Virus record (IMG/VR): IMGVR_UViG_2851982317_000004 | Origin: a virus | Lineage: Duplodnaviria > Heunggongvirae > Uroviricota > Caudoviricetes | DNA: 43,699 nt | Direction: 5' to 3' (one strand) | Shown here: in pieces, positions 34,833 through 38,978 of the stretch | Layout of the letters: each line of letters opens with the position of its first letter | Position numbering within the stretch: the stretch's first letter is position 1 | Program-made: the position numbers and the translations under genes | The notes under the pieces: model-generated | Seen by the model: the letters and a program-made list of their open reading frames with translations, nothing else | Told to the model about the DNA's origin: nothing | Database searches by the model: none

Positions 34833-37800
34833 ATGGGTAAAGGCAGCAGTAAGGGGCATACCCCGCGCGAAGCGAAGGACAACCTGAAGTCCACGCAGCT
34901 GCTGAGTGTGATCGATGCCATCAGTGAAGGGCCGGTTGAAGGTCCGGTGGATGGATTAAAAAGCGTGCTGCTGAACAGTACGCCGGTGCTGGACAATGAG
35001 GGGAATACCAACATCTCCGGCGTCACGGTGGTGTTCCGGGCAGGTGAGCAGGAGCAGTCACCGCCGGAGGGGTTTGAATCCTCCGGCTCCGAGACGGTGC
35101 TGGGTACGGAAGTGAAATATGACACGCCGATCACCCGGACCATCACGTCGGCAAACATCGACCGTCTGCGCTTTACCTTCGGTGTACAGGCACTGGTGGA
35201 AACCACCTCAAAGGGAGACAGGAATCCGTCGGAAGTCCGCCTGCTGGTTCAGATACAGCGTAACGGTGGCTGGGTGACAGAAAAAGACATCACCATTAAG
35301 GGCAAAACCACGTCGCAGTATCTGGCCTCAGTGGTGGTGGATAACCTGCCGCCGCGCCCGTTTAATATCCGGATGCGCAGGATGACGCCGGACAGCACCA
35401 CAGACCAGCTGCAGAACAAAACGCTCTGGTCGTCATACACCGAAATTATCGATGTGAAACAGTGCTACCCGAACACGGCACTGGTCGGCGTGCAGGTGGA
35501 CTCGGAGCAGTTCGGCAGCCAGCAGGTGAGCCGTAATTATCATCTGCGCGGGCGTATTCTGCAGGTGCCGTCGAATTATAACCCGCAGACGCGGCAATAC
35601 AGCGGTATCTGGGACGGAACGTTTAAACCGGCATACAGCAACAACATGGCCTGGTGTCTGTGGGATATGCTGACCCACCCGCGCTACGGCATGGGGAAAC
35701 GTCTTGGTGCGGCAGATGTGGATAAATGGGCGCTGTATGTTATCGGCCACTACTGCGACCAGTCGGTGCCGGACGGCTTTGGCAGCACGGAGCCGCGCAT
35801 CACCTGTAATGCCTGGCTGACCACACAGCGCAAGGCGTGGGATGTGCTCAGCGATTTCTGCTCGGCGATGCGCTGTATGCCGGTATGGAACGGGCAGACG
35901 CTGACGTTCGTGCAGGACCGGCCATCGGATAAGGTGTGGACCTATAACCGCAGTAATGTGGTGATGCCGGATGATGGCGCGCCGTTCCGCTACAGCTTCA
36001 GCGCCCTGAAGGACCGCCATAATGCCGTTGAGGTGAACTGGATTGACCCGAATAACGGCTGGGAGACGGCGACAGAGCTTGTGGAGGACACGCAGGCCAT
36101 TGCCCGTTACGGTCGTAACGTCACGAAGATGGATGCCTTTGGCTGTACCAGCCGGGGGCAGGCACACCGCGCCGGGCTGTGGCTGATTAAAACGGAACTG
36201 CTGGAAACGCAGACCGTGGATTTCAGCGTGGGTGCTGAAGGGCTTCGCCATGTACCGGGCGATGTCATTGAAATCTGTGATGATGACTATGCCGGTATCA
36301 GCATCGGCGGGCGCGTGCTGGCGGTGAACAGCCAGACCCGGACGCTGACGCTCGACCGTGAAATCACGCTGCCATCCTCCGGTACCACGCTGATAAGCCT
36401 GGTTGACGGAAGTGGCAATCCGGTCAGCGTGGAGGTCCAGTCCGTCACCGACGGCGTGAAGGTAAAAGTGAGCCGTGTTCCTGACGGCGTTGCCGGATAC
36501 AGCGTGTGGGGGCTGAAGCTGCCGACGCTGCGCCAGCGCCTGTTCCGCTGCGTGAGTATCCGTGAGAACGACGACGGCACGTATGCCATCACCGCCGTGC
36601 AGCATGTACCGGAAAAAGAAGCCATCGTGGATAACGGGGCGCACTTTGACGGCGACCAGAGCGGCACGGTGAATGGTGTCACGCCGCCAGCAGTGCAGCA
36701 CCTGACTGCCGAAGTCACCGCAGACAGCGGGGAGTATCAGGTACTGGCCCGCTGGGATACGCCGAAGGTGGTGAAGGGCGTGAGCTTCCTGCTCCGTCTG
36801 ACCGTAACAGCGGATGACGGCAGTGAGCGGCTGGTCAGCACGGCCCGGACGACGGAAACCACATACCGCTTCACGCAACTGGCGCTGGGGCGGTACACGC
36901 TGACAGTCCGGGCGGTAAATGCGTGGGGACAGCAGGGCGATCCGGCATCGGTATCGTTCCGGATTGCCGCACCGGTAGCACCGTCGCGGATTGAGCTGAC
37001 GCCGGGGTATTTTCAGATAACCGCCACGCCGCATCTTGCGGTTTATGATCCGACGGTACAGTTTGAGTTCTGGTTCTCGGAAAAGCGGATTACCGATATC
37101 AGGCAGGTTGAAACCAGCGCGCGTTATCTTGGTACGGGGCTGTACTGGATAGCTGCCAGTATCAATATCAAACCGGGCCATGATTATTACTTTTATATCC
37201 GCAGTGTGAACACCGTTGGCAAATCGGCATTCGTGGAGGCTGTTGGTCAGCCGAGTGATGACGCATCCGGCTATCTGGATTTTTTCAAAGGCGAGATAGG
37301 GAAAACCCATCTGGCTCAGGAGCTGTGGACGCAGATTGATAACGGTCAGCTTGCGCCTGACCTGGCTGAAATCAGGACATCCATTACGGATGTCAGCAAT
37401 GAAATCACACAGACCGTCAATAAGAAACTGGAAGACCAGAGTGCAGCGATCCAGCAGATACAGAAGGTTCAGGTTGATACAAATAATAATCTGAACAGCA
37501 TGTGGGCTGTGAAGCTGCAGCAGATGCAGGACGGACGCCTTTATATTGCGGGTATCGGTGCCGGTATTGAGAACACCCCCGACGGCATGCAGAGTCAGGT
37601 GCTGCTGGCGGCAGACAGGATTGCGATGATTAATCCTGCAAATGGCAACACAAAACCGATGTTTGTTGGTCAGGGTGATCAGATATTCATGAACGACGTG
37701 TTCCTGAAACGCCTGACGGCCCCCACCATTACCAGCGGCGGTAATCCTCCGGCATTTTCCCTGACACCGGACGGGCGGCTGACGGCGAAAAATGCCGATA

Positions 37801-38093
37801 TCAGCGGTAACGTGAATGCGAACTCCGGGACGCTCAACAACGTCACGATTAACGAGAACTGTCGGGTTCTGGGAAAATTGTCCGCCAACCAGATTGAAGG
37901 CGATCTCGTTAAAACAGTGGGCAAAGCTTTCCCCGGGACTCCCGTGCACCGGAACGGTGGCCATCAGGGACCATCACCGTCAGGGTTTATGACGATCAGC
38001 CGTTTGACCGGCAGATTGTTATTCCGGCGGTGGCATTCAGCGGCGCTAAACATGAGCGGGAGAATAACGATATTTATTCGTCATGCCGCCTGA
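34833..38093 (+). CDS. J: Host specificity / tip attachment protein J, frame lost near the 3' end
   Basis: 1086 aa ORF with lambda J-like N-terminus; the last ~55 codons read as nonsense, and the conserved J C-terminus continues in a different frame (ORF 38030..38311). Confidence 0.85.
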
Positions 38094-38311
38094 TAGTACG
38101 GAAAAACGGTGCTGAAATTTATAACCGTACCGCGCTGGATAATACGCTGATTTACAGTGGTGTTATTGATATGCCAGCTGGTCGCGGCCACATGACGCTG
38201 GAGTTTTCGGTGTCAGCATGGCTGGTAAATAACTGGTATCCCACAGCAAGTATCAGCGATTTGCTGGTTGTGGTGATGAAGAAAGCCACCGCAGGCATCA
38301 GTATCAGCTGA
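38030..38311 (+). CDS. J: C-terminal segment of J in a shifted frame (pseudogene fragment or sequencing error)
   Basis: The frame reads ...[92 protein letters not shown], matching the lambda J C-terminal receptor-binding end as I recall it. Confidence 0.7.
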
Positions 38312-38329
38312 ATTTTATAACCCATATAC

Positions 38330-38354
38330 GGGCGCCAGAAATGGCGCCTTTTTT
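38330..38354 (+). terminator. Intrinsic terminator after J
   Basis: Stem GGGCGCC / GGCGCC with 6-nt loop followed by T6. Confidence 0.55.
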
Positions 38355-38378
38355 ATTGCAGAAAAGCGAGAGGTAATT

Positions 38379-38978
38379 ATGCGTAAAGTTTGTTCAGCCA
38401 TTTTGTCCGCAGCCATCTGTCTGGCCGTATCCGGTGCACCTGCATGGGCGTCTGAGCAGCAGGCCACACTGAGCGCAGGGTATCTTCATGCCCGTACGAA
38501 CGCTCCCGGCAGCGATAATCTGAACGGGATTAACGTGAAATACCGTTATGAGTTTACGGACACGCTGGGGCTGATTACGTCATTCAGTTATGCCAACGCT
38601 GAAGATGAGCAAAAAACGCATTACAGCGATACCCGCTGGCATGAAGATTCCGTGCGTAACCGCTGGTTCAGCGTGATGGCGGGGCCGTCTGTGCGCGTGA
38701 ATGAATGGTTCAGCGCGTATGCGATGGCGGGTATGGCTTACAGCCGTGTTTCGACTTTCTCCGGAGATTATATCCGCGTAACTGACAACAAGGGGAAAAC
38801 GCACGATGTGCTGACCGGAAGTGATGACGGTCGCCACAGCAACACGTCTCTGGCGTGGGGAGCTGGCGTGCAGTTTAACCCGACCGAATCCGTGGTTATT
38901 GATGTCGCTTATGAAGGCTCCGGCAGTGGTGACTGGCGCACTGACGGTTTCATCGTGGGTGTCGGTTATAAATTCTGA
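38379..38978 (+). CDS. lom: Lom-like outer membrane protein (Ail/Lom/PagC family)
   Basis: 199 aa with N-terminal signal peptide (…[10 protein letters not shown]), beta-barrel-like alternating pattern and C-terminal YKF; lambda lom position between J and stf. Confidence 0.85.

Follow-up and report, generated by a model that had tools for sequence, protein, structure and literature searches.

The tip attachment gene J of the window, that is, the whole stretch of 43,699 nucleotides analysed here, was found to be split by one missing base: a run of C had four letters, while five were present in every otherwise identical copy of the gene. This shortened run (C4, as opposed to C5) was a singleton on this J haplotype, private to this sequence, and it put the last part of the gene, encoding the C-terminal receptor-binding domain, out of frame. 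Judged from the comparison with public genomes, the loss would probably have arisen in the pipeline rather than in the cell, as a homopolymer under-call during the sequencing or assembly of an ETEC genome of the E2528-C1 type. A one-base homopolymer discrepancy in a well-known gene is ordinary either way and nothing new in kind. The features concerned, in window coordinates, were as follows.

34833..38093, + strand: J (tip attachment / host specificity) frame as it stands, 1086 codons (list of open reading frames and translation).
37928..37934, + strand: in-phase X_XXY_YYZ heptamer T_TTC_CCC, its phase counted from 34833, where the ORF begins.
37931..37934, + strand: the lesion, a four-C run in the context TTT-CCCC-GGG, with five C in every otherwise identical copy (pairwise alignments).
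37934..38311, + strand: rest of the J coding sequence, in the -1 frame, corresponding to residues 1035-1159 of the intact protein and to the C-terminal receptor-binding domain (PF12421).
38030..38311, + strand: mechanical ORF of 93 codons inside this -1 frame segment (list of open reading frames), in a frame open already from 37913.
38330..38359, + strand: strong G+C hairpin resembling a terminator (GGGCGCC...GGCGCC) with a T run (T6) after it, lying past the true stop of J and ahead of lom.
38379..38978, + strand: lom (Ail/Lom outer-membrane protein), conserved downstream neighbour of J and the handle for retrieving independent copies of the tail module.

By its series of domains and its place in the order of tail genes, downstream of L, K (C40 peptidase) and I and upstream of lom and the side tail fibre gene, the feature is the lambda-type tip attachment protein J (gpJ). 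Counting codons from 34833, the sequence reads GCT (37926) TTC CCC (37932-37934) GGG, and the frames part after codon 1034 (Pro1034). In translation, codons 1-1034 were authentic and were followed by 52 out-of-frame codons and the stop at 38093, frame 0 ending in ...IFIRHAA* when the three forward frames of 37800-38311 were compared. A Pfam search of the frame-0 product detected five domains (FNIII-A_GpJ, Phage-tail_3, Ig_J, Ig_J_second and Phage_Tail_Tip), Ig_GpJ_C (PF12421) being absent from it, while the -1 frame segment 37913-38308 matched precisely this C-terminal receptor-binding domain with E=1.6e-39. Moreover, all six J domains, including Ig_GpJ_C, were found in the protein repaired by one base. 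As PF12421 spans residues 1029-1159 in the intact relative, the break falls within the first residues of the receptor-binding domain. The first-pass annotation had described a split J frame whose recognisable C-terminus continues in another frame, which was borne out both by the translations and by PF12421 in the -1 frame; the out-of-frame tail that it put at about 55 nonsense codons is real, its length being 52 codons plus the stop.

The position of the lesion was established by comparison with public genomes. Among complete E. coli genomes, the top matches aligned 801 query bases to 802 subject bases with 99.9% identity, and the global alignment between the 3,479-nt J of the window and the 3,480-nt gpJ of strains 203740 and E2528-C1 presented one difference, a C missing from GCTTTCCCCCGGGAC. 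Every other nucleotide of the 3,480-nt gene is common to the window and to these ETEC prophages, whose gpJ is WP_032222074.1 (NZ_CP035870.1 EW999_RS06170 in E2528-C1; NZ_CP025913.1 CXW72_RS15970 in 203740), and inserting one C gave a protein identical to it, residue for residue, over its 1159 aa. The neighbours of the gene are also shared with both strains, namely the C40 peptidase (K), the tail assembly protein (I), lom, the side tail fibre and tfa; in contrast, the two strains have C5 and one ORF of 1159 aa, whereas the window has C4 and a split frame. The claim that four C stand where five would give a single frame was therefore upheld, since the intact gpJ of 203740 and E2528-C1 differs only there in 3,480 nt.

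The identity extended well beyond J. The window corresponded to the complement of NZ_CP035870.1 1216037..1259736 (E. coli E2528-C1) with 0 mismatches, the missing C being the sole difference in 43,699 positions, and no other indel was found anywhere in the 43.7 kb of the window against this record. An ETEC challenge strain (LT-only, O25:NM; PMC6663128), E2528-C1 carries this entire prophage between potB and potC. The window itself comprised a complete lambdoid prophage located between these two genes, from the integrase to a partial tail fibre assembly gene, and its ends coincided exactly with annotated gene ends in NZ_CP035870.1. Independent copies of J were retrieved through the neighbouring Lom protein identical to that of the window, and C5 was present in all 10 contigs encoding it. 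Five of them, from independent assemblies, had C5 together with a J showing 0 mismatches to the window (CP035870.1, AAVTZQ010000032.1, JBODBV010000065.1, Logan ERR1937616 and ABZDAR010000061.1). The truncated 1086-aa J product was not found in any record, and the 93-aa fragment appeared on three contigs, all of them with other J haplotypes. Hence, the J frame was broken at 37931-37934 in the window and intact in all otherwise identical copies.

Regarding the segment that was put out of frame, lambda J (NP_040600.1; PDB 8iyk, 8xcj/8xck) belongs to the same family as the J of the window and has the same domain order, with 83% identity overall and a length of 1132 aa compared to 1159 aa for the intact window-type J, and the lost segment aligns to lambda J residues 1003-1131 (8iyk). 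However, the receptor-binding domain of the window scored 139 bits against its best solved relative, ‘A8 gpJ’ (9wca), and 90 bits against lambda 8iyk. Being closer to 9wca than to lambda, it need not recognize LamB; on these alignment scores it is of another type than the lambda (LamB) one and would probably bind a different receptor. Consequently, the match of the restored C-terminus to lambda J, as given in the first-pass annotation, was right as to a lambdoid-prophage J and not as to the sequence of lambda itself, from which the receptor-binding domain has much diverged.

The occurrence of C4 in public sequences was low. An exact match to a 66-mer carrying C4 was found in 10 of the 2,706 complete E. 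coli records considered (5,191 places), nearly all the others being one base longer. In IMG/VR, one C4 copy was detected against at least 117 with C5, and this single copy, identified with a C4 31-mer, was located on a J 92% identical to that of the window. The same 31-mer had no match among metagenome contigs (0 vs. at least 120 with C5) and none among species-representative genomes (0 vs. 3). At least eight J haplotypes (11-170 differences in segments on the kb scale) were represented among the public C4 copies, which are therefore not one inherited allele. In addition, seven of the 10 C4 records fell into three groups by strain-name prefix or country of isolation, consisting of three UID strains (Bangkok, three haplotypes), two UT strains (USA) and two identical copies (Taiwan), so that C4 seems to track the data source rather than ancestry, as judged from strain names and countries and not from stated platforms.

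Public C4 copies were mostly accompanied by other frameshifted genes. In particular, 04-00955 had five frameshifted genes within 24 kb near J, including prfC, the C40 peptidase adjoining the C4 J of UID2404240036 was also frameshifted, and a Logan contig with C4 presented a second homopolymer deletion 8 nt downstream. Several gpJ pseudogenes annotated as ‘frameshifted’ by PGAP (NZ_CM143255.1 ACYTVD_RS24505, NZ_CP035498.1 EQO00_RS27085, NZ_CP148746.1 WHU70_RS20240 and NZ_CP166186.1 AB8K37_RS08380) showed the same one-base shortening of the C run and the same effect on the frame as the window; in contrast, they belong to other J haplotypes, with 28-170 differences over about 1 kb, and usually lie amid further frameshifted genes, whereas the window had no other lesion. 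The grouping of the C4 records and the adjoining frameshifted genes together form the pattern of a context-specific homopolymer miscall at TTTCCCCCGGG. As a control, the neighbouring C5 run of the same gene (37720-37724) was shortened in silico by one base, and 0 exact matches were obtained among 1,695 near-exact records (Fisher p=0.008 vs. the lesion run). The lack of shortened copies of this control run points to an effect of the TTTCCCCCGGG context, and suggests that the T3-C5-G3 run (window 37928-37937, TTTCCCCGGG) shows either a context-specific miscall or a hot spot.

Some individual C4 records presented further peculiarities. In SCU-484 (NZ_CP051744.1 4693224-4701293), C4 was accompanied by further indels and nearly every gene of the tail region was frameshifted (C40 peptidase, I, J, lom and fibre genes), which indicates an indel-rich assembly within the ‘complete genome’ set. 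On the other hand, the C4 J of UTAK-23 (NZ_CP169003.1, 12261-14596 of the retrieved locus) was also cut in its 3′ part by ISEc22 (IS66 family) and is a truly decayed copy. In C25 (NZ_CP127314.1, 12024-12170 of the retrieved locus) and UID2309220031 (NZ_CM142673.1), C4 was combined with a change from (GA)4 to (GA)3 about 125 nt downstream, by which the frame is regained after a 42-codon out-of-frame patch in the receptor-binding domain, and in the PGAP annotation both J genes count as intact. Only four complete-genome records had (GA)3, three of them with C4. This strong association was examined as a possible sign of selection for frame restoration, which would speak for real C4 alleles; SCU-484 is among these records, however, and argues instead for assemblies rich in indels, a common lack of assembly quality accounting for the association no less well. 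No second, compensating change was present in the J of the window, on which the (GA) observation has no bearing.

Three alternatives had been put forward in the first-pass annotation for the split frame, namely a defective tail tip, a sequencing error or a slippery site, and the comparisons described above ranked them without settling them. A sequencing error is favoured, given that a public prophage identical base for base has C5, and a defective tail tip is possible. This C5 copy comes near to the resequencing outcome that had been named beforehand as refuting the split. According to the favoured explanation, the real prophage would keep an intact 1159-residue J, and one C would have been dropped from the TTTCCCCCGGG run during sequencing or assembly, with no biological event involved. 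The window equals NZ_CP035870.1 except for one C, which implies that this genome, or one clonal with it, was read as C5 before; moreover, C4 is a singleton on this haplotype and the run behaves likewise in other assemblies, for which reasons the artefact was preferred. In line with a homopolymer error, the difference from the independent copy was confined to the length of the C run, and the shortening recurred in unrelated assemblies, on at least eight haplotypes, in the three name or country groups and with extra frameshifts nearby. However, not one more indel was present in the 43.7 kb of the window, so its source assembly was otherwise accurate; Illumina or HiFi errors would usually need a run longer than five; and homopolymer runs are genuine mutational hot spots as well, so some of the C4 pattern could be due to true deletions that arose repeatedly in decaying prophages. 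The competing explanation is a real deletion, strand slippage having removed one C in the source isolate very recently. The prophage would then be freshly defective, its 1086-residue J keeping the body of the tail tip, with residues 1035-1159 replaced by 52 junk residues. We consider this possible but somewhat doubtful. The sequence itself leaves no doubt about the lesion, a window that is perfect elsewhere speaks for an assembly of good quality, and the segment lost is exactly the PF12421 receptor-binding domain; besides, E. coli prophages commonly contain gpJ genes broken by frameshifts, which PGAP annotates as pseudogenes, and some J decay is certainly real, as in UTAK-23, whose J is cut by ISEc22. 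Against this, with zero other differences from E2528-C1 in 43.7 kb, the deletion would have to be extremely recent and, as the single change, to have hit a run whose length is also misreported in public assemblies, while no second assembly carries C4 on this haplotype and the rest of the prophage presents neither compensating nor secondary decay. If the deletion were real, the prophage would have just lost its receptor-binding domain and, according to the domain map, its particles could not adsorb or spread through J. If it were not, a one-base homopolymer discrepancy would be enough to make an intact, probably inducible ETEC prophage look like a pseudogene-bearing remnant. Calls of prophage ‘intactness’ should not rest on a single discrepancy of this kind, and TTTCCCCCGGG in gpJ is flagged here as a place where public assemblies repeatedly report C4.

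The remaining explanations were far less probable. The C4 allele might be decoded by -1 ribosomal frameshifting at T_TTC_CCC, with tRNA-Phe in the P site moving from UUC to UUU and tRNA-Pro in the A site exchanging one CCC for another, so that some ribosomes would make the 1159-residue J and the allele would be leaky or regulated instead of null; we hold this to be very improbable. The phase of the heptamer is correct, and ribosomes slipping to -1 on the C4 allele and going on with CGG GAC would make the intact wild-type protein (...AFPRDSR...) residue for residue. In this respect, the window resembles the programmed -1 sites of lambda G/GT and of IS911/IS3/dnaX, which have an in-phase X_XXY_YYZ heptamer and a meaningful -1 product, but unlike them its heptamer is poor, has no convincing stimulator and is not conserved. 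Indeed, UUUCCCC is inefficient in E. coli, with frameshifting values of 0.125% alone, 0.185% with the IS911 stimulators and 0.98% with the IS3 pseudoknot (Sharma et al.; PMC4066793 supplement), and it is over-represented in this phase in E. coli genes (z=12; PMC4066793) and thus not avoided as shifty. The T_TTC_CCC heptamer exists in the C5 allele too. Moreover, no convincing downstream stimulator was found in the pseudoknot-free fold of 37928-38030 (z=-1.9), which presented a weak 4-bp first helix overlapping the site and a modest hairpin about 21 nt after the heptamer. The two-frame layout was not conserved either, as the close relatives were all single C5 ORFs, and it is one mutation old. 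At 0.125%, J trimers wholly of full-length chains were computed to be about 2e-9 of the total, and about 0.4% would include one or more such chains. Recoding at T_TTC_CCC is therefore negligible, in agreement with the place that the slippery site had been given as the less likely option. Transcriptional slippage was rejected as well, for it needs long A or T runs and not C4. A combined scenario, in which C4 is real, a slip of about 0.1% on the chance-made U_UUC_CCC leaves a leaky J with about 0.4% of trimers having at least one receptor-binding domain, and TTTCCCCCGGG is a true hot spot repeatedly switching the infectivity of lambdoid prophages off, would be just as far-fetched. Even less credit was given to phase variation, with the C run acting as a contingency tract for turning J on and off, despite the recurrence of C4 on several haplotypes and its being more frequent than at the control C5 run. 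Five bases lie below the length at which frequent slipped-strand switching occurs, the off state would be represented by 0.2-0.4% of copies and was absent from at least 120 metagenome contigs, and the occurrences track submitters (by strain name or country) and error-rich assemblies. A contingency locus, with its long tract and both lengths common, was accordingly discarded for a 5-nt tract with C4 in 10 of 2,706 records, in one copy vs. at least 117 with C5, and in none vs. at least 120 with C5. Equally hard to credit is that J truly ends at 38093 in this lineage, 38030..38311 being a separate small gene, for which the mechanical ORF calls speak and nothing further. In all relatives, one 1159-aa protein is encoded up to the position matching 38311, the 52-codon tail has no similarity to J while the -1 frame encodes its receptor-binding domain, and the terminator-like hairpin at 38330..38359 comes after 38311 and fits a gene ending there. 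This ending was refuted by the single-base difference in the alignments, the intact C5 relatives and PF12421 in the -1 frame. The alignment to intact J genes, proposed beforehand as a check, gave relatives ending at the equivalent of 38311 and not of 38093, so the diagnosis of a frameshift stands.

Finally, an antisense ORF of 843 codons was observed on the - strand (window 35433-37964), wholly within J, which is probably a by-product of the codon composition of J and not a gene.
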